Both the position numbers and the translations under genes were made by a program. A DNA stretch of 64,000 bases from Gammaproteobacteria bacterium (lineage in GTDB: Bacteria; Pseudomonadota; Gammaproteobacteria; GCA-001735895). The notes beneath the pieces were generated by a model that saw nothing but the letters and a program-made list of their open reading frames with translations, had not been told where the DNA came from and did no database searches. The stretch lies in assembly GCA_014382695.1 (NCBI GenBank), contig JACNJF010000106.1, positions 15,520-79,519 of the forward strand. Reading direction: 5' to 3'. Of this stretch, positions 1 through 38,174 are shown piece after piece (position 1 is the first letter of the stretch; the number at the start of each line of letters is the position of its first letter).

Positions 1-428
1 TCAACTTCTGTTTTTGGCGTGTCCACCATCAGCAGAATGTCACCATGATCGATTTCCCGCTTGAAATTATCCAGCTGGTGATTGTGTTCATGACCCTTCA
101 CCAATCCCAGGATGACGACTCCAAATCCGATGCCGGCCAGGGTGCCAATCAACAGGGCGTTCAGGCCCAGCTCCAGTCCGCCGGGTGGAAATAGCAGTGT
201 AAACAGGCTCCCGGAAAAGCCTGCCAGGCCGCCTAGAATGGTTCCCCAGATCAGTCCACTGGCAAGTTCTGTTCTTTGCCAGATGGTTGCCTGTGGAAAT
301 CCTTTCAATGAGTATTCGATGCTGGCTACGACATGTAAATGGGACGCTGCAATTCCCTGCTGCTGTAGTTCAGCAATAATAACTTCAGTGAGGGGCAGAC
401 TGGGTATTAAAAAATTGATACGACGCAT
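1..428 (-). CDS. Glycine-zipper membrane protein of unknown function; 3' end runs off the window
   Basis: The reverse-complement frame translates cleanly as MRRINFLIPSLPLTEVIIAELQQQGIAASHLHVV...GTILGGLAGFSGSLFTLLFPPGGLELGLNALLIGTLAGIGFGVVILGLVKGHEHNHQLDNFKREIDHGDILLMVDTPKTEV, with Gly-rich TM helices, ATG at complement 426-428 and no stop before position 1. The listed plus-strand ORF 112..444 is P/R/S-rich and not protein-like. Confidence 0.5.
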   Translation of the reverse strand, partial: MRRINFLIPSLPLTEVIIAELQQQGIAASHLHVVASIEYSLKGFPQATIWQRTELASGLIWGTILGGLAGFSGSLFTLLFPPGGLELGLNALLIGTLAGIGFGVVILGLVKGHEHNHQLDNFKREIDHGDILLMVDTPKTEV

Positions 429-703
429 TTTTTTTTCCTGTTGATAAGGCCGTAACAAAATAGCTTTGACCCGAATCGATAGTACCGAAGTGTAACGCTT
501 ATATGAGTAAAATTAACAGATTCATGCGCAGCTAGAATTGATATGGAGCAAACATATATCGTTTATTTGTATCGGCGATAGAGTTGAAAAATGAGAAATC
601 AATTTCAATTTAACTATTTATTGAAGGTATTTAATCCAAACTCTAAAAATCTCTACTATATTCATTGATTGTGTATAATTTCTGAAAATTGATTGTATTA
701 AAT

Positions 704-1591
704 ATGGCATCGCAGCAAAGAGTCGAGGTACTGGATTTCGGAGGAACTGATAATATCGATCTGCTGATTAGTGAGGTTGATAAACTGGTCAGTTTGCCGG
801 ATGTCTATTATCGACTCGAAACCCTGATTGAACATCCCGGTTCGTCTATTGCTGATTTTTCCAAGGTGTTATCCAGTGACCCCGACCTTTGTGCTCGCCT
901 GCTAAGCCTGGCGAATAGTGCGTTCTATAGCTTTCCTGCCAGTATCGAGTCGGTGGATAAGGCGATTCAAATCATCGGTGTGCGTCAGGTACGTGAACTG
1001 GTGCTGGCCACCAGTATTCTGAATGTATTCAATAAAATGCCATTAGGCATGATAAACATGAGGTTGTTCTGGGAACACTCTATCGCAGTTGGAGTGATGG
1101 CAAAATCGATCGGCCAGTATTGCAATATTAGTCAGCCAGAGCGTTTTTATGTGGCCGGGTTGTTGCACGATATCGGTCGACTGGTGTTTTTTCTGAAATT
1201 ACCGGGCCTGATGCACGATCTATTATTACTGCGGGAGTCTCGTGAAGAGTCGCTGTATGTACTGGAGCTGGAAAGTCTAGGCTATAGCCATGCTGAGGCG
1301 GGCGGTCGCCTGCTGGAGAACTGGCGCGTACCACTGTCGATACATGAACCGGTCAGCTTTCATCATAAACCTGATCTATCGCTTGAGTTCCCGCAGATAA
1401 CGGCTGCGGTACATGTTGCTGATTTCTGGGTTAACAAGCAGCAGATGGGCAGTAGTGGCGACCGTTTTGCTTTACCGCTCTATCAGTCGGCATTGAAACT
1501 ATTAAAATTACAGAGTTATGAGCTGGAAGAAATCTGGATTCTGGCAGAGGATGCGATGAAGGATGTGATGCATCAATTTTTAAGTCAGTAG
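704..1591 (+). CDS. HDOD-domain signalling protein
   Basis: The ORF is called from TTG at 689 but the likely ATG is at 704 (MASQQRVEV...). It carries the HDOD-type core GLLHDIGRLVFF / HAEAGGRLLENW and is about 295 aa. A TATAAT -10 lies at 674-679 in an AT-rich upstream region. Confidence 0.75.
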   Translation: MASQQRVEVLDFGGTDNIDLLISEVDKLVSLPDVYYRLETLIEHPGSSIADFSKVLSSDPDLCARLLSLANSAFYSFPASIESVDKAIQIIGVRQVRELVLATSILNVFNKMPLGMINMRLFWEHSIAVGVMAKSIGQYCNISQPERFYVAGLLHDIGRLVFFLKLPGLMHDLLLLRESREESLYVLELESLGYSHAEAGGRLLENWRVPLSIHEPVSFHHKPDLSLEFPQITAAVHVADFWVNKQQMGSSGDRFALPLYQSALKLLKLQSYELEEIWILAEDAMKDVMHQFLSQ

Positions 1592-1593
1592 GC

Positions 1594-1628
1594 AAAAAAA
1601 AAGCTTCAATTAATGAAGCTTTAAAACT
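1594..1628. terminator. Bidirectional rho-independent terminator between convergent genes
   Basis: An A-run, the perfect inverted repeat AAGCTTCA-ATTAAT-TGAAGCTT, then a T-rich tail, sitting between the stop of the HDOD gene (1591) and the stop of the minus-strand lipoprotein gene (1674). Confidence 0.6.
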
Positions 1629-1673
1629 AACACGTCCCTGTGTTAAAGAGGAGATAAAACATGGGGGAGTAGA

Positions 1674-3140
1674 TTAATCCTGAGCTTCGAGCTCAACTTC
1701 ATCGATGACGCCATCAGCTGGAGCATTATCGGTTAACTTGACGAAAGTACCGGTTGCCAGCTGATTATAAAAAACAGGTGCCGTGATAACCGCTTCCAGA
1801 CTGTTTTTATAGACCGCCGTTGAACCCACAACGAAGGTCTGACCGAACATGGTGACGCTTTGAACAGTAGCATCGAAAGATTCAACCGGTCCCTGCAGTC
1901 TGGAATCATCAGTATTATCCTTTTTCAGCTCTACTGCGTTGATCACTGATGTGCCATCAAAGAAGGCTTTTACTTCGACAAAATCACCGGCGACCAGCTG
2001 GCTCAGTGTGATGGCCTGATTATTAACCTTGTCATCCAGTTTGGTTTGCTGATTGACCCGGACCGTGATGTTATCGCTGCCGCCAAACAGATTGAAGCTG
2101 GCGCTGCCACTGGTAGCGTTAATGGAGCTGATTTCTGCAAAAACCTTGATTTTCTGGCCTCTGAGTTTGATCTTGTCGGCAAACAAGGTTCCACCTACCA
2201 GTGATCCTTCCGCTTCTACCTTGATGCCATCGGCCAGGGTCAAGGTTGATGGAGTGAATACCGGTGCTGCGGAAAAATCGATCAACTGGCCCTGAATCGT
2301 GAAAGTGCTGGCGGCAGCATTGTAGTCTGCCACGAACCCTTCGATTTCGACTTCATCGGCATTGTCACCCAGAGTATCTTCTCCAGACTCAATTTTGGCG
2401 GCTACCAACGCATCACCCGCGCCGTTTAACAGGCCTTTGACTTCTACATACAGGCCATTGCTTAGGGCGCTGATGCTATCATCCAGTATGGTGGAACTGT
2501 ACTGGATGTTAAAATCCCGGATCGTGAAAGTGTTCGGTGTAGCATCCAGATTAGCAATCACACCCTTGATTTCGACCTGATCGATAGCCGGGATGAAGGT
2601 TCCGCCTGGCTGTCTTTCAATAAAGGTTGCGCTGATGCCGGTGCTGGAAAGCAGGCCACTCACTTCGATAAAATCAGTGTTTGCCAGATCGGTCAGTGTG
2701 AGACCCTGATCGAAGCGTGTATCGGCATTGATTTCAACCTGCTGGCCCAGAATAGTCATCGTCGCCAGAGTCGGGTCTGTCGCATCAATCGCCAGATTGC
2801 TGACAGGTCCTTTCAGTTCATTCTGATAAATCAAACTGGTAGCGGTGCCGGTAACGCCGTCATCATTGACCGTGCCGTTAATCTTGACGCGCATGCCGAT
2901 GCGTAAATCATCCTGGCTGGCAGTCGGATTATCATCGACGTTCATGCTGGTGGTAGTGGTTTCGAATTTCACACCATTCACATACACACTGCCGAAACCG
3001 GTGATGATGCCGGAGGAGATACGGCTGGCCCTTGGCAGGGAGTCTGATGAGTCATCGCTACTGCTGCCGCCGCAACCGCCGATGATTAATGTGGTGGTGA
3101 TTAATGCCGGTAAAAGAGCTTTTTTAAAGGGTGTATTCAT
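1674..3140 (-). CDS. Secreted lipoprotein with about seven tandem DUF5666-like (OB-fold-like) repeats
   Basis: The likely start is the internal MNTPFKKALLPALITTTLIIGGC, giving a signal peptide and lipobox Cys. An S/D-rich linker follows, then a roughly 60-aa unit repeated about seven times (G.I.GFGSVYVNGVKF..., ILGQQVEINADTRF, VEVSGLL, VEIKGVIANLD, VEVKGLLNG, VEIEGFVAD, VEAEGSLVGG, VEVKAFFDG). The ORF track extends to 3209 with an N-terminal extension. Confidence 0.7.
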   Translation of the reverse strand: MNTPFKKALLPALITTTLIIGGCGGSSSDDSSDSLPRASRISSGIITGFGSVYVNGVKFETTTTSMNVDDNPTASQDDLRIGMRVKINGTVNDDGVTGTATSLIYQNELKGPVSNLAIDATDPTLATMTILGQQVEINADTRFDQGLTLTDLANTDFIEVSGLLSSTGISATFIERQPGGTFIPAIDQVEIKGVIANLDATPNTFTIRDFNIQYSSTILDDSISALSNGLYVEVKGLLNGAGDALVAAKIESGEDTLGDNADEVEIEGFVADYNAAASTFTIQGQLIDFSAAPVFTPSTLTLADGIKVEAEGSLVGGTLFADKIKLRGQKIKVFAEISSINATSGSASFNLFGGSDNITVRVNQQTKLDDKVNNQAITLSQLVAGDFVEVKAFFDGTSVINAVELKKDNTDDSRLQGPVESFDATVQSVTMFGQTFVVGSTAVYKNSLEAVITAPVFYNQLATGTFVKLTDNAPADGVIDEVELEAQD

Positions 3141-3321
3141 TGAAGTAATTCCTCGTTTGGTTAAGATTTTTGGATACCGCGTATCCGATAATTGGGAATA
3201 TAGTCCCAAATTAAAAAGGATGCAAACTTATTTGCTGGTTTGGTAATTGTTCACAATTTACTCAGGATGATTCCGGCTGAGGGTAGTTTTTACGCGGCTG
3301 GATTAAGCTATGAGGGTTGTA

Positions 3322-4671
3322 TTATAGCAGGAACAGGGTTGCCATACCGAGAAAGGCGAGGATACCGATCACATCGGTAAAGGTCGTTAATACCACACTG
3401 CCTGCAAGCGCCGGGTCAACTCCGATTCTTTTTAGCAGTACGGGGATGATGGCACCGGCATACGCACCCGCCAAAAGATTGATGACCAGTGACAGCGCAA
3501 TGATCCAGGCCAGATTAAAGTCTTCAAACCAGAGGATGGTAAAGGCGGCGACGACGGCTGCCCATAACAGGCCATTGATCAGGCCGACCGTGATTTCCTT
3601 TTTGACCAGGCTGTTAAAATTGGAACTGCCGAGCTGGCCCAGCGCCAGACCCCGTATCACCAGCGTCAGGGTCTGTGATCCGGCAATGCCTCCCATGCTG
3701 GGCACGATGGTGAGCAGGATCGCCAGTGCAACGATCTTGTCCAGTGCATTTTCGAACAGTCCGATCACCGAGGCGGCCAGAAAGGCGGTGAGCAAATTGA
3801 ATCCCAGCCATACCGCCCTGCGTCTAGAGCTGCTCCAGATCGGCGAAAACAGGTCTTCATCTTCGTGCAGGCCAGCCATGCTGAGTACGGAGTTATCGCC
3901 CTCTTCACGAATAACATCGACCACGTCATCGATCGTGATACGTCCGAGCAGGCGGCCATTTTCATCGACCACGGCGGCGCTGATCAGGTCATTGTCTTCA
4001 AAGATGCGCGCAACATCATCGTCGATCAGCTGTGCCTGCAACGGCAGGATGTCGATATTCATCACCTGTTCGACTCGGATTTCGGTGTCGCTGGTTAACA
4101 GCCTGCTCAGGGAGAGTGTACCGATCAGTTTGTCATAACGATCGGTTACGAAGAGCTGATCGGTATGAGCCGGTAATTCTCCGCGTATACGCAGATAACG
4201 CAGTACCACGTCGAGTGTTACGTCGGCACGAATCGTAATCGGGTTGAGATCCATCAGCCCGCCGGCAGTATCTTCCGGGTAGGCCAGCACCGATTCCAGT
4301 TTTTCGCGTTTTTGCTGATCCAGTATAAATAGTACGCTGACCAGTTTTTCTGCTGGTAGAGAGAGCATCAGGTCAGCCTGATCATCCACATCCGGTAGCG
4401 TATCGATGATTTCTGCAATTTGCTTTGAACTGAATTTTTTCAGTTTCTGCTGTCGCACTTCATCGCTGGTTTCGAGTAGAACAGGGCCCAGGTTAAACGG
4501 GTATACCTGCGGCCAGATCTGTTCGCGTTGCGAGGAAGGAGTGGAGTCAAGAATGTCCGCGATCTGGGCAATATTGATCCGATCCAGAATCTGCGCTATT
4601 GCGGAAGAATCAGACTGTTCGAGTGCTGAAGAAATATCCTGCCGGAGGTTTTCCGTGATCAGATCAGGCAT
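3322..4671 (-). CDS. mgtE: Magnesium transporter MgtE
   Basis: 449 aa with an N-terminal MgtE_N region, tandem CBS region (GRITIDDVVDVI), a C-terminal five-TM domain and the conserved PSMGGIAGSQT motif. Confidence 0.9.
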   Translation of the reverse strand: MPDLITENLRQDISSALEQSDSSAIAQILDRINIAQIADILDSTPSSQREQIWPQVYPFNLGPVLLETSDEVRQQKLKKFSSKQIAEIIDTLPDVDDQADLMLSLPAEKLVSVLFILDQQKREKLESVLAYPEDTAGGLMDLNPITIRADVTLDVVLRYLRIRGELPAHTDQLFVTDRYDKLIGTLSLSRLLTSDTEIRVEQVMNIDILPLQAQLIDDDVARIFEDNDLISAAVVDENGRLLGRITIDDVVDVIREEGDNSVLSMAGLHEDEDLFSPIWSSSRRRAVWLGFNLLTAFLAASVIGLFENALDKIVALAILLTIVPSMGGIAGSQTLTLVIRGLALGQLGSSNFNSLVKKEITVGLINGLLWAAVVAAFTILWFEDFNLAWIIALSLVINLLAGAYAGAIIPVLLKRIGVDPALAGSVVLTTFTDVIGILAFLGMATLFLL

Positions 4672-4789: not shown

Positions 4790-5059
4790 TTACTCTTCTT
4801 CGTCAAAGCGATTATTGATCAGCTTGACGATGGCTTCGAAACAGGCTGTTTCATCGTCACCGTCAATCTCCAGCTTAATCAGGGTGCCCTTGCTCGCCGC
4901 CAGCATCATAACGCCCATGATGCTTTTTGCATTGACCCGGTTACCCTTGTTATCGAGATGCACTGAACTGCCAAATTGAGAGCATAGATTAACCAGCTTG
5001 GAAGCGGCTCGTGCATGTAACCCGAGTTTATTAATGATGGTGATGTCTTGAGTAATCAT
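4790..5059 (-). CDS. ptsO: HPr-family phosphocarrier (NPr/PtsO-like)
   Basis: 89 aa with GLHARAA placing His at position 15 and NAKSIMG placing Ser at position 46, so both the EI site and the HprK target serine are kept. It is the last gene of the rpoN-linked PTS-Ntr cluster. Confidence 0.85.
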   Translation of the reverse strand: MITQDITIINKLGLHARAASKLVNLCSQFGSSVHLDNKGNRVNAKSIMGVMMLAASKGTLIKLEIDGDDETACFEAIVKLINNRFDEEE

Positions 5060-5179
5060 AGTAATAGCAGTTGTATTGTTTTATTGCTGATGCTGAAATT
5101 TCAGTAAATCAGTTTGCGGGTCATTATCTGGCGCATCAATATACAACAGATATATTATTTAGCCTATTACGCTTTTAGC

Positions 5180-5587
5180 TTAAATCGACAGGCCGTCTTC
5201 TTCCTTGCTGATACCCTTATTGGCACCCTGGATTGCACTCAGCGCCATTTCAGGAAGACTCTGTTCGTCATAGTTGATGATCCGGATCAGCATCGGAAGG
5301 TTGAGCCCCGTCACTATTTTTACGTTATGGTGATTAGCAAAATAATGTGCCAGATTGCTTGGGGTTGCACCGAAAATATCGGTCAGTATTAAGACTCCCT
5401 GACCCTTGTCCAGGGTATCGATGTCAGATTTTATCTGATCGGCATACCTGCCCAGTTCTGCCGCAATCAGGTCTCCCGGAATTCCCACCGTACGGATGGT
5501 TGCCACACATTTCCCGACTATGGTTTCAGCGGTTTTTAGCATTTCCTTGCCAATATTGTTGTGAGTGACGATCAGGATGCCGGTCAT
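5180..5587 (-). CDS. PTS EIIA component, mannose/fructose (EIIA-Man) family
   Basis: 135 aa; MTGILIVTHNNIG gives the EIIA-Man fold N-terminus with a phosphorylatable His near residue 9-10. The start overlaps the rapZ stop by 1 nt. Confidence 0.75.
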   Translation of the reverse strand: MTGILIVTHNNIGKEMLKTAETIVGKCVATIRTVGIPGDLIAAELGRYADQIKSDIDTLDKGQGVLILTDIFGATPSNLAHYFANHHNVKIVTGLNLPMLIRIINYDEQSLPEMALSAIQGANKGISKEEDGLSI

Positions 5588-6444
5588 TAGTCAAACTCCC
5601 GGTGTCTGATCGATACGTTGTTTCGATTTTTTTGCAATGCGGATGCGATTTTTTGTACCAGATAGACGGATCGATGCTGGCCACCGGTACAGCCGATGGA
5701 GATGGTCATATAACTACGCCCTTCTTTTTCAAAGCAGGGTATCCATTGCTGCAGAAAGTTTACTATCGACTGTTCCATATCATTCACTTCAGTGAATCCT
5801 TCCAGATAGTCAATAACCGGCTTATCTTTACCGGTAAAAGGACGCAAATGACCCTCCCAGTGGGGGTTTGGCAGGCAGCGCACATCAAACATAAAGTCGG
5901 TATCGGCCGGCAGGCCATGTTTAAAACCAAACGATTGAATCAGTATCGCCATCGAGTCGATGTTGCCGTTCAACAGTCGATTGTTAATGATATGGCGTAG
6001 TTCATGCACGTTGAGCTGGGTGGTGTCGATGGTGATATCCGCTTTGGAGGATATGCTTTTAAGTATGCTGCGTTCCATATGTATCGCTTCCTCCAGTGGC
6101 AGGCCCTTGCGCGAAAGAGGGTGTTTGCGCCGGGTTTCACTGAAGCGGGTGAGCAGCTTTTCGACTTTGGAGGTCAGGAACAGGATTTCTACCTTGACAT
6201 CAAGGGCCTGAATTTCGGAAATGATACTATCGAAATGAACAATATCCTGGATATTGGCGCGTGCATCGATGGCGACTGCGATCAGATCGTATAGCGCCGG
6301 TTTACTGGTTTTCATGGAGTGGACAAAATCAGTCAATAGACCGACTGGCAGATTATCCACGCAGAAATAACCGGCATCTTCAAGTGTGTGTAGCGCGATG
6401 GTTTTGCCGGAACCGGAAAGTCCGCTCACAATCACCAGTCTCAT
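5587..6444 (-). CDS. rapZ: RNase adaptor protein RapZ (YhbJ)
   Basis: 285 aa; N-terminal MRLVIVSGLSGSGKTIALHTLEDAGYFCVDNLP carries the P-loop, and the position inside the rpoN locus is conserved. Confidence 0.9.
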   Translation of the reverse strand: MRLVIVSGLSGSGKTIALHTLEDAGYFCVDNLPVGLLTDFVHSMKTSKPALYDLIAVAIDARANIQDIVHFDSIISEIQALDVKVEILFLTSKVEKLLTRFSETRRKHPLSRKGLPLEEAIHMERSILKSISSKADITIDTTQLNVHELRHIINNRLLNGNIDSMAILIQSFGFKHGLPADTDFMFDVRCLPNPHWEGHLRPFTGKDKPVIDYLEGFTEVNDMEQSIVNFLQQWIPCFEKEGRSYMTISIGCTGGQHRSVYLVQKIASALQKNRNNVSIRHREFD

Positions 6445-6573
6445 TGAATTTTCTCCTGCATCAGGCAGATTCGTGTGGGTATAAAGCCCAGATCTTGACC
6501 TGGGTATTTTGCTGCTGATAGTAGCGCGTTGATTTTCATCTAACTATGTCCTGCATCACTGTTTAGATTAAAT

Positions 6574-7530
6574 CTATAACTGGCTCTTGGTATTTGCCAG
6601 AATGGCGAGTCGCTGTCGTTCGATAAAATCCTCTGCCGCATTATAGCCGCTCAGTTTTTGCTGATGATTACGCGCGGCAGCTTCGACCAGTACGGTCAGG
6701 TTGCGGCCAGGAGAGACGGGCAGGGTCATTTCAGGAATCGCAGTGCCCAGAATGGTTCTGGTTTTATGGGTGTCACCCAGGCGGTCAAACTGGTGGCTGT
6801 TTTCTGAGGTGTAGTGAATCATATTCACGATCATACGCAGTGTTTTGTTTCTACGTAGAGCATTACTTCCGAACATGGCGCGTATATTCAGGATACCAAC
6901 GCCACGCACCTCGATGAAATCGTTGGACAGTCCAGGGTGAATGCCGTCAATCACCCCCGGTGCTAATCTTGAGAACTGGACAATGTCATCGGCAATCAGG
7001 CGATGACCTCGGGAGATCAGTGACAGAGCGAGTTCTGACTTTCCTACGCCACTATCGCCGACAATCAGGGTACCGACGCTATACACCTCGATAAATACAC
7101 CATGCATGGTCGTGGTTTCGGATAATGCCTGATTCAGGAAATAGCGTAAATTACTGAGTAGCGGGGTATCTTCCAGCTCGGAGCGGAAGATCGCGATAGC
7201 GGCTTTGCTACAGTACTTGATGGTCGAGTTCGACAGTGAAGCGCGCTGACTTAATATCAGACTGCAAACTGACTGCCGAAATAGCTGCCCGAGCAGGTTG
7301 TGCTGGTTTTCGGAACTCATGGAGGCCAGATAGTTTGATTCGTGAACGCCGATCACGGCAACGCTGGCGGGTCGAATGAGATTCAGGAAATCGGCGGTTT
7401 CATAGTTTCCGCTATCTTTTGAGGGGGAATGAATCTCCTTTTCCATGCCGACCTGTCCGGAAACAAAAGACAGCTGCAGACGTTTCTGGAAACGCTGATG
7501 AAACTCTCGAATGCTGAGGCTGATGGACAT
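6574..7530 (-). CDS. hprK: HPr kinase/phosphorylase
   Basis: 318 aa with the Walker A motif GDSGVGKSE and IEVRGVGI, the C-terminal catalytic signatures of the HprK family. It sits between ptsN and rapZ. Confidence 0.85.
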   Translation of the reverse strand: MSISLSIREFHQRFQKRLQLSFVSGQVGMEKEIHSPSKDSGNYETADFLNLIRPASVAVIGVHESNYLASMSSENQHNLLGQLFRQSVCSLILSQRASLSNSTIKYCSKAAIAIFRSELEDTPLLSNLRYFLNQALSETTTMHGVFIEVYSVGTLIVGDSGVGKSELALSLISRGHRLIADDIVQFSRLAPGVIDGIHPGLSNDFIEVRGVGILNIRAMFGSNALRRNKTLRMIVNMIHYTSENSHQFDRLGDTHKTRTILGTAIPEMTLPVSPGRNLTVLVEAAARNHQQKLSGYNAAEDFIERQRLAILANTKSQL

Positions 7531-14563: not shown

Positions 14564-15088
14564 TTAAAAGTCGTCGGTAGAGGTGAACAGGCCAACACGC
14601 AGATCTTTGGCGCTATAGATTTCGCGTCCGTCAACCTGCATCGTGGCGTCGGCTATGCCCATCACAAGCTTGCGCATGATCAGGCGTTTGACGTGAATTT
14701 TATAGGTGACTTTTTTGGCGCCCGGTAAAACCTGACCGAAGAATTTGACTTCACCGGAGCCCAGCGCGCGACCATGTCCCTTACCGCCTTTCCAGCCCAG
14801 GTAGAAACCAACCAGTTGCCACATCGCATCCAGGCCCAGACAGCCGGGCATCACTGGGTCGGTTTCAAAATGGCAGGCAAAAAACCACAGTTCGGGTGTA
14901 ATATCGAGCTCTGCTTCGATATAGCCTTTGCCGTGGTCACCGCCATCTTCGGTGATATGGGTGATACGGCTGAACATCAGCATCGGAGGTAATGGCAGCA
15001 GGGCATTACCCGGCCCAAAGAGCTTTCCTTTTCCAGCGTCGATGAGTTCCTGGTATGTGAAGCTGTTTTGACTGGTGAGTTCTGCCAT
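14564..15088 (-). CDS. fabA: 3-hydroxydecanoyl-ACP dehydratase/isomerase FabA
   Basis: 174 aa, near-collinear with E. coli FabA: [68 protein letters not shown]. Confidence 0.9.
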
Positions 15089-15228: not shown

Positions 15229-15822
15229 ATGCCAATTAAGCTGGGCGTTTATAACTGGCAGAGCTTCGCGCCTGATGCGGGTTACTATCCGCAGGATCTA
15301 CCGCCGGACTGGAAGCTATCGTATTACGCGAATGAGTTTGCATCGGCCGCTATCGATCTGGCCTCTGGAAGGATTGGTATACAGCAACTGCAGCAGCTGG
15401 TCGATGGATTGGCGCAGGAATTTGAGCTGACGCTGGCCTTTTCCGGGCTGGCGCAGCTGGATCAATGGCTCACGCCCCTGCATCAGCAACCGATAAAGCT
15501 ACATAGCCTGATGTTACCACCGTCTGCGTTAGCTCAACTGTTACGGGATCAGACCAGGCTCAAGCCGCTATCCACCCTTGGCATAGTCCATTCCACACAA
15601 TTGATTACAGCGGATGCTCTGTGGAGCCCGGATAAACCGGATCAACATTGTCGGATAGCGCTACTGGAGGCGCATAGCGATTTGAAACAGTATCGTCGCT
15701 GGATCGAGCAATGGGTCGGGGATCACCCTGAGCGCTGTGAAACACTGTGGCTACAGGGTGAAACAGCGAATTATTCACAGTTGACTAAATTACGTACGCT
15801 GTTGGAGTTGCTGGGGTATTAA
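15229..15822 (+). CDS. Hypothetical protein with DUF72 (YecE/UPF0759)-like N-terminus
   Basis: 197 aa. The N-terminal pattern IKLGVYNWQSF....YYPQDLPPDWKLSYYANEF....IDL matches the DUF72 consensus G..GW....W...FYP..L.....L..YA..F...E.N, but the protein is shorter than typical DUF72 proteins (about 250 aa). It is divergent from fabA. Confidence 0.45.
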   Translation: MPIKLGVYNWQSFAPDAGYYPQDLPPDWKLSYYANEFASAAIDLASGRIGIQQLQQLVDGLAQEFELTLAFSGLAQLDQWLTPLHQQPIKLHSLMLPPSALAQLLRDQTRLKPLSTLGIVHSTQLITADALWSPDKPDQHCRIALLEAHSDLKQYRRWIEQWVGDHPERCETLWLQGETANYSQLTKLRTLLELLGY

Positions 15823-15886: not shown

Positions 15887-16690
15887 ATGACTCAGGCATT
15901 AATTCAAATCAGGAATCTACATTTCAGTCGAGGCCAGAATAAAATATTCGATGGCATCGATATGGATATCAGCGCAGGCCGCATCACCGCTATAATGGGC
16001 CCGAGTGGAACCGGCAAGACAACGCTACTAAAAATGATTGGCGGACAGTTGCACCCGGAGGCTGGTGAAGTGATCGTGGATGGCCAGAATGTGCATCGTC
16101 TGAAACGTTCCGAGCTGTACCAGCTACGCAAGAAAATGGGCATGTTGTTTCAGTCGGGTGCGTTGCTGACCGATCTTACGGTATTTGAAAATATAGCCTA
16201 TCCGCTGCGTGAACATACCAATCTGAGTGAGTCGATGATTTACTCCATGGTGTTGATCAAACTGCAGGCGGTGGGCCTCAGTGCAGCGCATACGCTGATG
16301 CCGGCTGAGCTTTCCGGTGGGATGGCGCGACGCGTCGCACTGGCTCGGGCGCTGGCGCTCGATCCGATGATGATTATGTATGACGAGCCTTTTACCGGTC
16401 AGGATCCGATCTCGCTGGGGGTACTGGTGAAGTTGATCCAGGAAACTAATTCTGCACTCAAGCTGACCAGTATTATGGTGTCGCATGATGTTAATGAAAC
16501 CATGTCCATTGCCGATGATGTGAAGATTATTTCACAGGGCAAGGTGGTGGCTGCTGGCACTCGACAGGAAATTGAGCAGTCGGATTCTGCCTGGGTACGT
16601 CAGTTTATCGACGGACAGGCCGACGGGCCGGTGCCGTTTCATTACCCCGGGGAAACTATCGAGCAGCAGCTGATGAAGGTGACCAAATGA
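15887..16690 (+). CDS. mlaF: Phospholipid ABC transporter ATP-binding protein MlaF
   Basis: 267 aa ABC ATPase with Walker [10 protein letters not shown], signature [14 protein letters not shown] and Walker B IMYDEP. First gene of an mla-type operon. Confidence 0.9.
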
Positions 16691-17439
16691 AAGCGCTGAC
16701 CCAGATGCTAACCCGGCTGGGGCGTGGCTCGCTGTTTCTAATCAAGATTCTGGCCGGAATTCCACAGCTATTTCTGCGCTTCCGGCTGGTGGTGCAACAG
16801 CTTCATTCAGTCGGCGTTCAGACCCTGATGATTACGCTGGTTGCCGGACTTTTTGTGGGTATGGTACTGGCGTTACAGCTGTACTATACGCTCAGCACGT
16901 TTGGCGCTGAAGACACCCTGGGGATGGTGGTCGACCTTGCACTGGTTCGCGAGCTCGGCCCGGTCGTTGCAGCTTTGCTATTTGCCGGGAGAGCGGGTTC
17001 TGCGTTAACCGCAGAGATAGGTCTGATGAAAGCGACCGAACAGTTGTCCGGGCTGGAAATGATGGCGGTCGATCCGGTCAACCGGATTATCGCACCGCGT
17101 TTTCTGGCCGGGTTTATCTCGATGCCGTTATTGGCTGCAATCTTCAGTGCGGTAGGTATTCTGGGTGGCTATAGTGTCGGGGTTGACCTGCTGGGGGTGG
17201 ATTCAGGTGCGTTCTGGTCGCAGATCCAGGACAAGGTTGATTTTTATGACGATGTGTTAAACGGTGTGATCAAGAGTTTTGTGTTCGGTTTTATCGTTAG
17301 CTGGATCGCCGTTTTTGAAGGTTATGACTGTATTCCAACCTCGGAGGGGGTATCGCGAGCGACTACCCGAACCGTGGTGCATTCCTCCCTTGCCGTACTG
17401 GGAATGGATTTTGTATTAACTGCAATCATGTATCAGTGA
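16687..17439 (+). CDS. mlaE: Phospholipid ABC transporter permease MlaE
   Basis: 250 aa multi-TM permease of the MlaE/Ttg2B family, overlapping mlaF by 4 nt. Confidence 0.9.
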
Positions 17440-17448
17440 GGAAATAAG

Positions 17449-17907
17449 ATGTTTCGCAGTATCGAATTAAGTGTAGGTCTGTTTGTCGGCATCGGTCTGG
17501 CGGCGTTGTTTATGCTGGCCATGCAGGCGAGTAACTTGAGTAGTTTTACCAGTGCCGGGCATTATCAGGTGAATGCCCGCTTTGATAATATCGGCGGTCT
17601 CAAGGTGCGTTCGGCGGTCAAGGTTTCCGGGGTCAAGATCGGCCAGGTGACTACGATTGATTATGATTCGGAAACCTTTGAGGCGGTTGTTAGCATGCAG
17701 ATCGATGAGAAATTCAGTAAGTTTCCACGCGACACGATTGCCAGTATCTTTACCTCCGGGTTACTCGGTGAGCAATACATCGGTCTGGAACCGGGTGGCG
17801 ATGAAAAGCTGCTGGCGCATCAGTCTGAGATACGGCATACCCAGTCAGCGATGGTGCTGGAGCAGTTAATCGGTCAGTTTCTGTTCAGTAAATCCAAAGA
17901 CGAATAG
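17449..17907 (+). CDS. mlaD: MCE-domain periplasmic protein MlaD
   Basis: 152 aa with an N-terminal TM anchor (LSVGLFVGIGLAALFMLAM) and a single MCE domain (VKVSGVKIGQVTTI). Confidence 0.85.
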   Translation: MFRSIELSVGLFVGIGLAALFMLAMQASNLSSFTSAGHYQVNARFDNIGGLKVRSAVKVSGVKIGQVTTIDYDSETFEAVVSMQIDEKFSKFPRDTIASIFTSGLLGEQYIGLEPGGDEKLLAHQSEIRHTQSAMVLEQLIGQFLFSKSKDE

Positions 17908-17916
17908 TATCCGATC

Positions 17917-19281
17917 ATGAAACTTGTCTATTTCATCTGTTTGTTACTGCCGTTTATGCCGGTTAACGCTGCGACGACCTTAAGTCTGGATCAGGCTATT
18001 GAGATGTCAATGCAGGCTGATCCGCGTATCGAGGAAAAAAGAGCTTTTGTGCGTAAAGCCGAAGCGCTGCTGCAGGAAGCGGAAGGCAGCGGTGGTGTGC
18101 GCTATTCGGTAGATGCGTATATGGCGCTGGCGACCGGTCTGGATGGTGGTTTCTATGCTGGCGGTGCGGATAGCTGTAGTGCCGGTGCCGACTGCACACC
18201 CAGAGACGATGCCTATGATCTGGATGATGGCTTTTCGTTCTGGACCGGATTTACCTTCAGCATCATCAAACCCCTGACCACCTTCGGTCAGCTGGAGAGT
18301 TATCAGGACGCTGCGCGGCATAATATCCTGATCAAGCAGCAGGATATTACGCTGGAGAAGGAGGCTATCAAGCTGGATGTGGTACGCGCCTATTATGGCT
18401 ATCTGGCGGCAAGGGACGGGCGCTATCTGATGCTGGATACGCAGAAAAGATTGCAGTCGGCGCTGGATCTGGTGCTGGAATGGCTGGCCGAAGACAATGG
18501 TAAAGCGAAGCTTTCGGATCGCTATGCACTGGAAGCGGGCCTCGGATTGATTGAACGTTTTCTGGCCGATGCCAGTGCGCTGGAATCGATCGCTATGGAA
18601 GGCATTAAGTTGCTCACGGGTGTTGCACGCGAAGAAACAGTCGAGCTGGAGGATACACGCCTGCGAGCCGTGGCTTTACCGGAGCGAACGCTGGATGAGT
18701 GGATCGAACTGGCTTTGGCCGGACGCGCCGAATTCAAACAGGTAGAAGCCGGGCTAGCGTCCAGACGTGCACTGGTTGAGGCCAAACGGGCGAGTAGTAA
18801 GCCAGTGGTGTATGCCGGTCTGGCAGGTTCTGCGGCTTATGCGCCGGAGCGTGAACGACTGGATAACCCGTATATCACGGATCCTTTTAATCATGTTGCC
18901 GTGTCACCTTTGATAGGAATGCGCTGGCAGTGGGAAGCGGATGCGCAGCCGGCGCGGGTTGCACAGGAACAGGCCGAGCTGGATGCGCTGGTGCATAAGG
19001 CTTCTTTTGCACGTAAGGGTATCCCGTTTCAGGTGGCCGAGCAGTATCACCTGGTACAATCGAAATACAGCGGGATGGATGCAATGAAGAACAGTGCCCA
19101 GGCCGCCCGGCGCTGGATGATCGCGAGTTATACCGATTTTGAAGCAGGGCTGGAGAAAGCGGATAAAATTCTCACTGCAATGCAGGCGTATGTACTGGCG
19201 TATGCAGAGTATTTAAAAATTGTGAATGAATACAATAATCACGTGTCGAAATTGAATAGTGTCAGCGGAGTCTATGAATGA
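17917..19281 (+). CDS. TolC-family outer membrane channel protein (OEP family) encoded inside the mla operon
   Basis: 454 aa with signal peptide MKLVYFICLLLPFMPVNA, the OEP-like N-terminus TLSLDQAIEMSMQADPRIEE, helix-rich repeated halves and a C-terminal aromatic residue. It starts 10 nt after mlaD and overlaps mlaC by 4 nt. Confidence 0.65.
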   Translation: MKLVYFICLLLPFMPVNAATTLSLDQAIEMSMQADPRIEEKRAFVRKAEALLQEAEGSGGVRYSVDAYMALATGLDGGFYAGGADSCSAGADCTPRDDAYDLDDGFSFWTGFTFSIIKPLTTFGQLESYQDAARHNILIKQQDITLEKEAIKLDVVRAYYGYLAARDGRYLMLDTQKRLQSALDLVLEWLAEDNGKAKLSDRYALEAGLGLIERFLADASALESIAMEGIKLLTGVAREETVELEDTRLRAVALPERTLDEWIELALAGRAEFKQVEAGLASRRALVEAKRASSKPVVYAGLAGSAAYAPERERLDNPYITDPFNHVAVSPLIGMRWQWEADAQPARVAQEQAELDALVHKASFARKGIPFQVAEQYHLVQSKYSGMDAMKNSAQAARRWMIASYTDFEAGLEKADKILTAMQAYVLAYAEYLKIVNEYNNHVSKLNSVSGVYE

Positions 19282-19892
19282 GCATCAAAACTTTAACTAC
19301 GGCGTTTATACTGATCTGGCTGAGTCTGCTTCAGTCACCTCTTTTTGCGGCTGAATCGGCACCGGAACAGTTGATTCGGCAAACGGCGGATGAAGTGCTG
19401 GCAACGATTAAAACCAATCAGGATGAGTATAAGCAGCAACCTGCCAGGCTGTACGCGATGGTGGATGAAAAAGTATTGCCGCATTTTGATTTTGAACGCA
19501 TGACAGATCTGGCACTGGGTCGTTATAAGCGTCAGGTTGAAGCTGCGCAACGTGAAAAGCTGGTGCAGGCCTTCCGCAATCTGCTGGTCAGAACCTATGG
19601 CAAGGCATTGCTCGAATATACCAATCAAAAAATTCTGTATTTGCCTATGCGCGGTAAACTGGCCGAAGGTGAAGTCACCATTCGAACCGAGATCGAGCAG
19701 CAGGGCGGGTTCCCAATTCCGATCAATTATGAAATGTATATCAAGGATGGCAGCTGGAAGGTGTTTGATATCAGTATCGATAATATCAGTCTGGTCACTA
19801 ATTACCGGTCCAGTTTTGCACAGGAGATCAAGGCCAAAGGGGTCGATAGCCTGATTAAAACCCTGCAGGATAAGAATAAGCAGGAGAGTTAA
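19278..19892 (+). CDS. mlaC: Periplasmic phospholipid-binding protein MlaC (Ttg2D)
   Basis: 204 aa of the Tgt2/MlaC family with a signal peptide (LSLLQSPLFAAES). Confidence 0.85.
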   Translation: MSIKTLTTAFILIWLSLLQSPLFAAESAPEQLIRQTADEVLATIKTNQDEYKQQPARLYAMVDEKVLPHFDFERMTDLALGRYKRQVEAAQREKLVQAFRNLLVRTYGKALLEYTNQKILYLPMRGKLAEGEVTIRTEIEQQGGFPIPINYEMYIKDGSWKVFDISIDNISLVTNYRSSFAQEIKAKGVDSLIKTLQDKNKQES

Positions 19893-19896
19893 GGGG

Positions 19897-20199
19897 ATGG
19901 GCGTAGAGATCAGCTTCGATAGCACGAAGCAGTATATTCAGGTCAAGGGTGAGCTAACCTCGGCCACGGTGATGTCTGCATTAAAGCAGTTTTCACGCGA
20001 ATGTAAGGCTTTGCCACGCTGGGTGATTGATTTTACCCAGGTCACCAGAGTCGATAGCTGTGCACTTGCGTTATTGATTGAGTTGAAGCGTAATGCTGCA
20101 CAAAAAAATAAAAGCATTTCGTTTATTTACCTGCCGGCTGCACTACTCAGTATTGCCAGGCTGAGTCAGGTAGAGCTGTTACTGACTGGAAAAGACTGA
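19897..20199 (+). CDS. mlaB: STAS-domain protein MlaB
   Basis: 100 aa STAS/anti-sigma-antagonist-like fold, the last gene of the mla operon. Confidence 0.8.
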   Translation: MGVEISFDSTKQYIQVKGELTSATVMSALKQFSRECKALPRWVIDFTQVTRVDSCALALLIELKRNAAQKNKSISFIYLPAALLSIARLSQVELLLTGKD

Positions 20200-33128: not shown

Positions 33129-34019
33129 TTGAGATTCTTGAAAGGTTTATCTGCCCCCTTCAAACTGACTTTACCTGCGCTTCCACCTCGGCAGTCGATA
33201 CTGGCTTTACTGACACTGGTTTTTGTGCTTAATGCGCTGCTGATTTACTTCATGCTGGAGCAGCCGCGTTTTGGTATTTCGCTGCAACTGGTGGACGGTA
33301 AAATCTTTGCGACTGAAACCAGCCCGTCCTCCCTGGACGATCAGCAGGTGCCTCGTGAATTGACTGCGCTGGCTACTGCAGAATACCGGTTCGAGCTTGA
33401 AGCTGAAGATTTACTCGAAGAGCCCGATTTGCTGACCCGCTACAGTGAATATAACCGTTTCATGCAACGCCAGTCGATGCTGTTCGATTTACTGCAATAC
33501 CCTCGCGTCGAACTGTTCTGGGCAGATCAGGCTAGCTCTTCGTTGGCGCCGCGCAAAACCGTCTGGAGTGATTTACCCCTGATGTTCTGGTTTCAGTTGA
33601 TCGTTGCCAGTTTCAGTCTGCTAGTGGGGGCCGCTGTCTGGTTGTTCCGACAACGCGACCGTTCCGCACTACATTATTTTCTGATTGGCGTTTTCCTCGC
33701 GCTGGTCATCTTCCCCGCTGCCATCTATAGCAGCCGGGAACTGGCGCTGGATGGCGAACTGTTCAGGGTGTTATCGGTTGTTGATCATCTTGGGCTGTAC
33801 ATCGTGATGGCGGCCATTGTGTCGCTGGTGTGGTGCTATCCACAGCCTTTATGGACATTCCCGTTCCCGGCTTTGTTTTATTCGCTGATGTATCTGTGCT
33901 GGGTGGTGGATACCGTGCAGTGGTTTCCTGATCTCGATGTGAGCACCAGAATTGTTCCCCTGCTGATGCTCGTACTCGGTTTTGTACTGTTGATTGTGCA
34001 CTGGAAGCGATCTGCCTGA
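33129..34019 (+). CDS. Polytopic membrane protein, the probable N-terminal sensor module of the downstream kinase
   Basis: 296 aa with a TTG start, one N-terminal TM, a roughly 110-aa extracytoplasmic segment, then about five TM helices. It ends at a TGA that is in frame with, and one codon upstream of, the TTG start of the next ORF. Confidence 0.5.
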   Translation: MRFLKGLSAPFKLTLPALPPRQSILALLTLVFVLNALLIYFMLEQPRFGISLQLVDGKIFATETSPSSLDDQQVPRELTALATAEYRFELEAEDLLEEPDLLTRYSEYNRFMQRQSMLFDLLQYPRVELFWADQASSSLAPRKTVWSDLPLMFWFQLIVASFSLLVGAAVWLFRQRDRSALHYFLIGVFLALVIFPAAIYSSRELALDGELFRVLSVVDHLGLYIVMAAIVSLVWCYPQPLWTFPFPALFYSLMYLCWVVDTVQWFPDLDVSTRIVPLLMLVLGFVLLIVHWKRSA

Positions 34020-36041: not shown

Positions 36042-37523
36042 ATGAAGTTAATCCAATCCAGTTTTGTCAAACTATTTATTCTGCTGATGGCAGGTTTTAT
36101 ATTATCGGCCTGCGGAGGATCGGACAACGACGACGCTCCAGCCAATACTACAGCGACCCTGAGTGGCACTGCAGCGGTGGGAGCGGCTCTGGCCAGTCGA
36201 CAGGTGACTATAGTCGATAAGAGTGGTGCATCAGTCACCACTACGACGGATGCGAATGGTAAATACAGTGTAACGGTAACGGTATCGGCAAAACCATTTA
36301 TGCTTAAGGTGGAAACCGATGGTGAACCGTTGTATTCGTTTGCAGCGGAAGCAGGTATCAGCAATATAACGCCTCTGACCAATCTGGCGCTGCACGAAGC
36401 GAACAGGAATGGCAGTACCTATACGCCTTTAAGTAGTCTGTTTAGTTCGTTTAAGGATTCATATGCCGGAATTACCGAAACCAGGCTGAATGAAGCGAAA
36501 GCAAAAGTGAATGCCAATCTGGCCAGTGTCTATTCCAGCGCCGGCGTGGCTAATGGTTTTGATTTTTTTAAAACCGCTTTTAATGCGGACGGTAGTGGTA
36601 TCGATCAGGTGCTGGATAATGCGGGTATCAGCATCGACAGTAGTGACCCGGGTATTATCACTATCAATGTTACCGGGGCTTCTGCATTTTCTTTCAACCC
36701 CGGTATAGATTTCAGTCAGTTTGTGGTTGGCGGTGGAGCGGGCAGCGGTGGCGACATCGGGACACTGCCTTCCTATGTGGCTAGTCAGGTTGTGGACATG
36801 GAATTCTGTTGTGCGGCGGCAGGTGCCCCCTATAGTAACGGCGAGGTCGTTAAATTCACTTTCAGCGGTAGCGGTATGCTGTTTCTGACCGAGTCGTTTA
36901 CCGTTGTGGCGCCAACCTTTACCGATAACAGTAGTGCGACGCCTGGACCTTATATATGGGATAACGGAACCTATAAATATGAGCTGTCGGTACTGAATAA
37001 TGCGATTCATGAAGTGAATGTGTTTGCCTCTACAGCGGGTACCTTCCTCGGCCAGTTTACCCCGGTTACGGGTAATGGTGGTGGCAGCACTACTGGCGCG
37101 CCGGAAATTCCGGCGGGAGAGTTCGGGCTGGCATTTAAGCTGGATGGCGTGGTAACTCAGAGAACCACAGCAACCCCAACCTTACCCGGTATTGCACTGG
37201 CCATCACAGGCCTGGGCACTGAACGCTATCTGGCTTTTCTGGGAACCGGTGTTACCGATCAGTTAAGAATGATCCCGATCAATACCACGGGAACCTATAC
37301 CTGTGGAGCGGGCCCGAATTCATTCCGCCTGGTCGAAATGTGGCTCAGCCTGCCTGGATCGCATAAAGCCGATGCGAGCAAAGGAAGCTGCACCATTAGC
37401 GTCACTTCCGTCGGTAGTGTGTATGCAGGAACGTTCTCCGGCACCGTTATTAGTGATAGTGACGGTGTGACTGCGGTTTCAATTACTGAAGGTGTTTTCA
37501 GGGTGGACGGATCTTCTTTGTAA
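36042..37523 (+). CDS. Secreted lipoprotein of unknown function (N-terminal Ig-like/CarboxypepD_reg-like segment)
   Basis: 493 aa with signal peptide and lipobox (FILSAC), a TTDANGKYSVTVTV motif typical of CarboxypepD_reg/Ig-like beta-sandwiches, and a Gly/Thr/Ser-rich, non-membrane remainder. Confidence 0.6.
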   Translation: MKLIQSSFVKLFILLMAGFILSACGGSDNDDAPANTTATLSGTAAVGAALASRQVTIVDKSGASVTTTTDANGKYSVTVTVSAKPFMLKVETDGEPLYSFAAEAGISNITPLTNLALHEANRNGSTYTPLSSLFSSFKDSYAGITETRLNEAKAKVNANLASVYSSAGVANGFDFFKTAFNADGSGIDQVLDNAGISIDSSDPGIITINVTGASAFSFNPGIDFSQFVVGGGAGSGGDIGTLPSYVASQVVDMEFCCAAAGAPYSNGEVVKFTFSGSGMLFLTESFTVVAPTFTDNSSATPGPYIWDNGTYKYELSVLNNAIHEVNVFASTAGTFLGQFTPVTGNGGGSTTGAPEIPAGEFGLAFKLDGVVTQRTTATPTLPGIALAITGLGTERYLAFLGTGVTDQLRMIPINTTGTYTCGAGPNSFRLVEMWLSLPGSHKADASKGSCTISVTSVGSVYAGTFSGTVISDSDGVTAVSITEGVFRVDGSSL

Positions 37524-37570: not shown

Positions 37571-37597
37571 GCCCCCAATTCAGGTATCATGCGCGCC

Positions 37598-37941
37598 AAG
37601 TCAGCTGGATAATCGCTGGCACCGTCAGGTGCTGGAGGAAAGTCCGGGCTCCACAGGGCAGGGTGCCAGGTAACGCCTGGGAGGCGCGAGCCTACGGAAA
37701 GTGCCACAGAAAATATACCGCCGGACAGCTTGCTGGACGGTAAGGGTGAAATGGTGCGGTAAGAGCGCACCGCGCGACTGGCAACAGTCGTGGCAGGGAA
37801 AACCCCACCCGGAGCAAGACCAAATAGGAGAGCTATGGTGCTGCCCGCACTGCTTTCGGGTTGGTTGCATGAGGGTCCTGGTGACAGGGCTCCCAGATGA
37901 ATGATTATCCTCGACAGAACCCGGCTTACAGGCTGACTTAT
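37598..37941 (+). ncRNA. rnpB: RNase P RNA (bacterial type A, M1 RNA)
   Basis: GGAGGAAAGTCCGGGCTCCACAGGGCAGGGTGCCAGGTAACGCCTGGG, GGTAAGGGTGAAATGGTGCGGTAAGAGCGCACC, CCACCCGGAGCAAGACCAAATAGG and a 3' ACAGAACCCGGCTTA are near-identical to the conserved cores of E. coli M1 RNA. The P1 arms AGUCAGC / GCUGACU pair. All ORFs called across this interval are non-coding. Confidence 0.93.
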
Positions 37942-38174
37942 CTAAATTCCACCTTTCCCGTCTGCTCATTTTTTACCCTGAGCGGCGGGAAAATGTGGTA
38001 ACCCATGTTAATTTTTTCAGAATTTTCCCCGTTACATTAGTAGTACTTAATATTTCACTTTAACTATGCCTGTTTAATATATGTTTTTAAATGGGATTGC
38101 CCGTTCGTCATAAAAAAGTTTGCTAAGTCCTTGTTGTTATTAAAGAAATTCTATTCTGCCAAGTGGTTTTTTAC

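Follow-up and report, generated by a model that had tools for sequence, protein, structure and literature searches.

A divergent TolC-family gene coupled to mlaC in a gammaproteobacterial mla operon: a candidate outer-membrane end of a MlaC lipid shuttle

What does a gene for a TolC-family outer-membrane channel do inside an operon for lipid transport? The question is raised by a stretch of 64,000 nucleotides from a Gammaproteobacteria bacterium (assembly GCA_014382695.1, contig JACNJF010000106.1, positions 15,520 to 79,519), hereafter the window, in which a gene matching the outer-membrane efflux protein family, here called OEP, stands between mlaD and mlaC of the mla operon. The entry and exit of lipid at the outer membrane, as well as the direction of Mla transport, are still debated, and MlaC has a single known partner at that membrane, MlaA in complex with a porin. 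In E. coli this partner is a lipoprotein encoded apart from the mla operon, and the statement of the first-pass annotation of the window that the E. coli system has no TolC-like part agrees with the literature (PMC10665443 and PMC11131202). We found that OEP is positioned within the operon, is translationally coupled to mlaC, and stays with mlaC across deep divergence and alongside differing inner-membrane partners. Our preferred reading, which we hold with moderate confidence, is that OEP serves as the outer-membrane end of the Mla lipid route in this lineage, with MlaC shuttling between the MlaFEDB complex and OEP. The OEP-mlaC arrangement appears to be undescribed, and as such would represent a new variant of both the Mla pathway and TolC-family usage.

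Operon layout and the fold of OEP

The window operon contains genes for the complete MlaFEDB inner-membrane complex together with that for the carrier MlaC, as judged by Pfam and NCBIfam matches, so that the earlier assignment of the genes flanking OEP to Mla holds. The relevant features are as follows.

15887 to 16690, plus strand: mlaF, ABC ATPase of the Mla transporter (PF00005, E=5e-32; best NCBIfam match the MlaF model NF008809 at 390 bits, below its equivalog cut-off of 441)
16687 to 17439, plus strand: mlaE, permease, overlapping mlaF by 4 nt (PF02405, 254.7 bits; NF033619, 403 bits against a cut-off of 315)
17449 to 17907, plus strand: mlaD, MCE-domain inner-membrane protein of 152 residues (PF02470, 78 bits; TIGR04430, 189 bits against a cut-off of 135)
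17908 to 17916, plus strand: spacer of 9 nt (tatccgatc) between the TAG stop of mlaD and the ATG of OEP at 17917, read from the sequence
17917 to 19281, plus strand: OEP, divergent gene of the TolC/outer-membrane factor (OMF) family of outer-membrane channels, 454 residues, ATG start (PF02321 and AlphaFold2 (AF2) models)
19278 to 19281, plus strand: ATGA overlap of the OEP TGA stop and the mlaC ATG, read from the sequence
19278 to 19892, plus strand: mlaC, periplasmic lipid-binding carrier of 204 residues with a signal peptide (PF05494, 193 bits)
19897 to 20199, plus strand: mlaB, STAS-domain accessory subunit (PF13466, 56 bits; MlaB model NF033618, 37.7 bits against a cut-off of 90)

The open reading frame (ORF) of 454 codons is thus situated as previously described, between the end of mlaD at 17907 and the start of mlaC at 19278 with a 4-nt overlap, and its translational embedding in the operon is borne out by the 9-nt gap on one side and the shared ATGA on the other. 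A GGAG-like motif lies a few bases 5' of the mlaC ATG. The GC content of OEP is that of its flanks. A consensus scan for promoter and terminator signals between mlaD, OEP and mlaC returned counts that do not exceed the shuffled expectation, and is uninformative with respect to operon structure. The MlaC protein scored 97 bits on the NCBIfam MlaC model (cut-off 195) and 95 bits on the HpnM model, nearly a tie and in both cases below the cut-off; it also matched solved MlaC/Ttg2D chains (among them 2qgu, 6hsy and 5uwa), with E values ranging from 2e-31 (2qgu) to 6e-18.

We next consider the protein itself. The TolC-family identity suggested by the first-pass annotation is supported by both family profile and predicted fold. 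Pfam profile PF02321 matched the protein over two stretches (E=1.1e-17, 64.8 bits against a cut-off of 22), the better of which, at residues 259-451, spans profile positions 1-187 of 187, and the homologue encoded at locus L111 scored 75 bits against the same profile. Two AF2 single-chain models (pLDDT of 77.5, and of 87.8 with a deeper alignment) display the topology of a TolC protomer, in which four beta-strands (residues ~62-73, 106-121, 297-308 and 326-336) and two helices of ~67 residues (125-192 and 344-409) with shorter partner helices are arranged as two repeats. The N-terminus comprises a cleavable type-I signal peptide at residues 1-18 (...PVNA/ATT), and both it and the two helix-rich halves had been correctly noted before. 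The single Cys of the signal peptide is outside any lipobox and is not conserved.

Within its family, OEP is remote from the characterized members. The sole NCBIfam match was to NodT (TIGR01845), whose cut-off of 210 bits is far above the 21 bits scored by OEP, placing OEP outside the curated TolC (TIGR01844) and NodT subfamilies of that collection, and a phmmer search of the PDB with OEP matched no solved OMF. A profile built from 61 OEP sequences reached 22 bits to SilC and E values of 0.03-0.1 to TolC. Unlike these sequence searches, fold comparison did link OEP to solved OMFs, with a full-length match to efflux OMFs. Taken together, these results show by fold and family that OEP is a divergent TolC-fold outer-membrane factor, belonging to a distinct clade remote from canonical TolC.

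The loop joining strands 3 and 4 (residues 309-325, PERERLDNPYITDPFNH) is the most conserved segment of OEP, averaging a column conservation of 0.68 across 16 diverse members, and by analogy to TolC topology is predicted to face the cell surface. The extracellular loops of efflux TolCs are usually variable. Of the two periplasmic tips, the first (EDNGKAKLSD) shows no conservation and exceeds that of SilC by ~5 residues, and the second (FEAGLEKAD), with its invariant G411, resembles the tip motif centred on Gly that is found in efflux OMFs. Strand 2 ends in a PLxTFG motif that is characteristic of the wider clade. A D[PD]FN loop motif was considered as a marker of linkage to Mla and was rejected, as the Mla-linked member P0141 lacks it. 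We also noted that the loop between strands 1 and 2 (residues 74-105) is ~32 residues long, with C87 and C93 invariant among close relatives, and that the loops predicted to lie at the surface are atypical of TolC-type proteins.

The pairing of OEP with mlaC

When 1.84 billion cluster representatives were searched exhaustively, 912 relatives of OEP were recovered at E<=1e-3, and the OEP clade is a small, distinct group inside a very large family. The exact window protein is annotated merely as 'TolC family protein', in metagenome-assembled genomes (MAGs) of Gammaproteobacteria. Taxon labels within the clade are likewise mostly those of MAGs (Gammaproteobacteria, Halothiobacillaceae and Proteobacteria CG1_02_64_396), and the homologue search also placed members in the cultured Thiofaba sp. 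EF100, Guyparkeria hydrothermalis, Guyparkeria sp. XI15 and Halothiobacillus sp. DCM-1, as well as in a Solemya pervernicosa symbiont and a Sulfuriferula MAG.

Close relatives (62-78% identity) were present in 20 species-representative genomes, all from uncultured Gammaproteobacteria. Neighbouring genes in these, and in a metagenome sample consisting of the 80 best of the 357 relatives found in the scan, were tabulated by tblastn with the window proteins. In every locus with room downstream (20 genome and 80 metagenome loci, ~100 in all) the next gene was mlaC, and the OEP ORF was intact and full length throughout these ~100 loci. The 4-nt stop-start overlap with mlaC, as ATGA or GTGA, was found in 96 of 103 related sequences, with the spacing of the remaining 7 ranging from -1 to +10 nt. 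Spacing between mlaD and OEP in related full operons ranged from a 20-nt overlap to a 10-nt gap.

In the window, fabA, yrbG, kdsD and kdsC lie 5' of the mla operon on the opposite strand, and murA, hisG and hisD lie 3' of mlaB. The same outer synteny, kdsC-kdsD-yrbG-fabA on one side and murA-hisG-hisD on the other, encloses two architectures among the close relatives. The full architecture is mlaFED-OEP-mlaC-mlaB, while the reduced architecture consists of just OEP-mlaC between fabA and murA. We counted 64 reduced loci, including L009-L017, L019, L039-L043 and L046-L052; they are common in marine-sediment metagenomes, and a complete MAG chromosome (L010, positions 4983-6937) provides a clear example of a bicistronic OEP-mlaC unit. 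Even with relaxed thresholds, no remnants of mlaF, mlaE, mlaD, mlaB or orf197 were detected in these 64 loci. A homologue search with MlaD, aimed at relocated mlaFED genes of the reduced genomes, returned matches all of at least 73% identity, and the lowest-ranked match on a long contig (P0407, locus L111, 73%) was again part of a complete mlaFED-OEP-mlaCB operon. The neighbourhood of OEP contained no gene for a HlyD-family membrane-fusion adaptor, either in the window or in any of the related loci that were annotated. The orf197 named above is a gene for 197 residues directly 5' of mlaF (window positions 15229-15822, plus strand), which is 32-46% identical across full-operon loci and returned no match in Pfam, NCBIfam or PDB searches; its absence alongside that of mlaFED and mlaB in the 64 reduced loci suggests that it may be functionally part of the inner-membrane side of the system.

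The arrangement extends to distant relatives. In P0121 (45% identity), P0124 (41%), P0130 (40%), P0136 (34%), P0141 (31%) and P0144 (30%), OEP is in each case between MlaD and MlaC genes. In a seventh, P0142 (29%, L113), OEP lies 3' of MlaE-MlaD on a contig that stops 164 nt past OEP, where a 49-codon fragment without a match to MlaC is found. The flanks of the seven 29-45% relatives are mutually unrelated (L021-L025, L027, L113 and L115), and in a rough neighbour-joining tree Mla-linked distant members fall on at least 3 deep branches of the clade. The survey of related genomes envisaged in the first-pass annotation therefore places OEP between mlaD and mlaC in the full-operon loci as well as in six relatives of 30-45% identity.

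Further out, P0169 (28%, L114 positions 1-3699) is located between a MlaC/HpnM-like gene and a gene for a HpnN/BstA-like HAE3 RND transporter, in a cluster with overlapping stop and start codons and no adaptor. To judge from its gene content, P0169 would thus be the TolC-family protein of an adaptor-free cluster for lipid transport. Another member, P0138 (29% identity, L026 positions 1396-2856), is solitary, with cdsA, lgt and lspA on one side and on the opposite strand.

Taken together, gene order indicates that the conserved genetic partner of OEP is MlaC, not MlaD. A functional link between OEP and Mla, rather than an accidental fusion, is well supported by these comparisons, since mlaC is always the next gene where the locus has room for it and the 4-nt overlap is nearly constant.

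Weighing the role of OEP

Our preferred reading can be set out as a sequence of steps. OEP is presumed to be a trimer whose subunits together form a 12-stranded barrel and, in the periplasm, a helical tunnel of ~100 Å. MlaC would carry lipid between the inner-membrane MlaFEDB complex and OEP, and OEP would take the role played in E. coli by MlaA-OmpC/F, acting as the docking station for MlaC. From the observations above we infer the docking of MlaC on OEP, the nature of the lipid cargo, the transport direction and a substitution for MlaA. Because the conserved partner is MlaC, a shuttle-docking component of the outer membrane is favored over a continuous tripartite conduit.

Several points weigh against this reading. 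The TolC tunnel is normally water-filled and offers no obvious path for acyl chains. A mirror-tree analysis of OEP and MlaC, controlled for murA, hisG and fabA, returned a partial correlation of 0.43 for OEP-mlaC, equal to that of OEP-murA (0.43), and hence no specific signal of co-evolution. Two clade members do not stand beside a MlaC gene, namely the solitary P0138 (L026) and P0159 (L029/L030), in which mlaC is not the next gene. Adjacency can equally reflect the co-regulation of envelope functions. Replacement of MlaA is unproven, the search for mlaA having covered the window and related loci: none of the 27 window ORFs scanned matched the MlaA family in Pfam, and tblastn of the window and 115 loci (856 kb) with an E. 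coli MlaA sequence returned nothing, which is uninformative given that mlaA is usually unlinked. Finally, the mlaEFD-tolC-tamB genes of Negativicutes sit in a cluster for outer-membrane biogenesis, and the available text of PMC10665443 proposes no Mla role for that TolC.

One alternative holds that OEP and MlaC constitute an autonomous module for some other hydrophobic cargo, such as a hopanoid- or sterol-like lipid, a solvent or a surface lipid, which works with various inner-membrane engines and not specifically in MlaFEDB phospholipid asymmetry. Consistent with this, OEP and mlaC are all that is left of the operon in the 64 reduced loci, L114 has OEP flanked by genes for a MlaC/HpnM-like protein and a HpnN/BstA-like RND transporter, the MlaCs encoded at these loci score at least as well on the HpnM model as on the E. 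coli-type MlaC model, and a MlaC-like/MlaA-like pair was proposed for hopanoid transport (PMC12324291). We nevertheless regard such a module as unlikely. The window and all deep relatives other than L114 hold the pair inside a complete mlaFED...B operon at near-zero spacing, the window MlaC matches solved phospholipid-binding MlaC/Ttg2D, and hopanoid or sterol genes were not seen nearby.

A second alternative, which we likewise consider doubtful, is that OEP acts as a general-purpose TolC duct, serving pumps or type I secretion systems whose genes lie elsewhere, and shares a transcript with mla only because both have housekeeping functions in the envelope barrier. The full-length fold match to efflux OMFs is in keeping with such a duct, as is the second tip, which retains F-E-A-G-L and the invariant G411 in the manner of the TolC tip that contacts adaptors; tolC genes are often unlinked to pumps. 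The mlaEFD-tolC synteny of Negativicutes, described in the available text of PMC10665443 with no proposed role for TolC in Mla, would also fit. However, the 4-nt overlap with mlaC, seen in 96 of 103 sequences, is not expected of a generic duct, nor is a pairing that persists despite loss of mlaFED and mlaB and that recurs with a MlaC-like gene in the context of a RND lipid transporter. Moreover, the first helical tip lacks conservation and exceeds that of SilC in length, and the clade is very remote from canonical TolC.

A third possibility is direct contact of the MlaD hexamer with the six-hairpin tip of an OEP trimer, yielding a continuous, tripartite-like conduit across the envelope. The gene order mlaD-OEP with a gap of just 9 nt, and the geometric compatibility, in principle, of hexameric MlaD with the pseudo-sixfold tip of TolC, favor this model, as do the trans-envelope MlaD variants known from Negativicutes (PMC10665443). 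Against it, the window MlaD has 152 residues and is without a long periplasmic extension, there is no adaptor gene, MlaC is kept in all loci with downstream room and stays where mlaD is absent, and the tips are not the conserved parts of OEP. We consider direct docking very improbable. Thus, of the dedicated Mla channel put forward in the first-pass annotation, comparative genomics upholds the functional link, with MlaC as partner; the direct coupling of MlaFEDB to a channel and an architecture resembling tripartite efflux pumps are not supported, in view of the lack of a neighbouring HlyD adaptor gene, the short MlaD, the constancy of MlaC as neighbour, the 64 loci devoid of mlaFED and mlaB and the RND-paired relative in L114, findings that instead favor the shuttle. 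Lastly, the functionally unlinked operon fusion raised earlier as a fallback, and with it a chance insertion or a gene in decay, draws on nothing more specific than the general variability of mla gene order (PMC11131202) and is highly unlikely because of the conservation data: an ORF intact in ~100 loci at 62-78% identity among close relatives, the same position held in deep relatives down to 28% identity amid unrelated neighbourhoods, and a GC content like that of the flanks.

If OEP does act as the outer-membrane end of a MlaC shuttle, then a TolC-fold protein locked genetically to MlaC would represent a second, structurally unrelated solution to the outer-membrane step, the roles of the TolC family would extend past adaptor-coupled efflux and secretion, and the working of Mla-type carriers in organisms or pathways without MlaA could be explained. 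We further suggest, tentatively and as a possibility we rate below an even chance, that the whole TolC-fold clade comprises outer-membrane lipid translocons served by MlaC-family carriers, with MlaA-porin replaced here, HpnN-like RND transporters used elsewhere, and the conserved surface loop acting at the outer leaflet. Cultured members of the Halothiobacillaceae (Halothiobacillus, Guyparkeria and Thiofaba) would make these ideas accessible to genetic and biochemical tests, provided that their gene context is the same.

Other window features and comparison with known systems

Outside of the mla operon, several observations concern the window alone. The fabA gene (14564-15088, minus strand) lies between yrbG and the mla operon; we know of no fabA-like gene at the yrbG/mla junction in E. 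coli. A class A bacterial RNase P RNA (37597-37944, plus strand, 348 bits) was the sole Rfam match at the gathering threshold. Two plus-strand ORFs, one of 296 residues with a TTG start (33129-34019) and the other of 493 residues (36042-37523), returned no Pfam match; between them lie a histidine-kinase-like ORF and a LuxR-type response regulator. On the minus strand, a protein of 511 residues (1674-3209) is built from four DUF5666 repeats, and a gene for HPr kinase/phosphorylase (6574-7530) lies beside rapZ, where lptCAB, rpoN and ptsN are expected by position alone.

The E. coli Mla pathway shares with the window the mlaF, mlaE, mlaD and mlaB genes, the carrier MlaC, and the ancestral gammaproteobacterial position beside kdsD/kdsC/lpt and murA. 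It differs in that the window bears a TolC-family gene between mlaD and mlaC that is coupled to mlaC. Orders of mla genes vary among bacteria: mlaA is joined to mlaC in Campylobacter and to mlaBCDEF in Neisseria, and Burkholderia has continuous operons that are organised differently (PMC11131202). Literature searches directed at the present arrangement turned up no report of a TolC-family gene within the mla operon of a proteobacterium. The only published precedent found for a tolC homologue directly beside mla is the mlaEFD-tolC-tamB cluster of Negativicutes, as in Veillonella parvula and Acetonema longum (PMC10665443 and PMC13018214), a synteny conserved across the class according to the former. 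That cluster lacks MlaC, MlaA and MlaB, places tolC 3' of mlaD and 5' of tamB, and encodes a long, trans-envelope MlaD with its own beta-barrel. In contrast, the OEP described here is tied to MlaC and found in Proteobacteria.

Relative to tripartite pumps and type I secretion systems (AcrAB-TolC, MacAB-TolC, MexAB-OprM and CusCBA), OEP exhibits 11-18% sequence identity, has no adjacent gene for a membrane-fusion adaptor, and is partnered with a soluble lipid carrier; its first tip is unconserved, and a predicted extracellular loop is its most conserved part. A closer parallel in organization is the proposed hopanoid route, in which MlaC-like HpnM and MlaA-like HpnS are partners of the RND transporter HpnN (PMC12324291). 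The proposed HpnN-HpnM-HpnS route and BstABC sterol transport would combine a MlaC-family carrier, a non-ABC (RND/HAE3) transporter and a dedicated outer-membrane partner (PMC12324291), and L114 resembles this scheme with a member of the OEP clade in place of the MlaA-like protein. In contrast to OEP, HpnS is a MlaA-like lipoprotein, and the window operon employs the MlaFEDB ABC transporter. In the chloroplast TGD system, a Mla-type ABC/MCE transporter (TGD1/2/3) works with TGD4, an outer-envelope beta-barrel that is not MlaA. TGD4 is not of the TolC family and the system has no MlaC-type carrier; the feature shared with the arrangement proposed here is the pairing of a Mla-type transporter with an outer-membrane beta-barrel.

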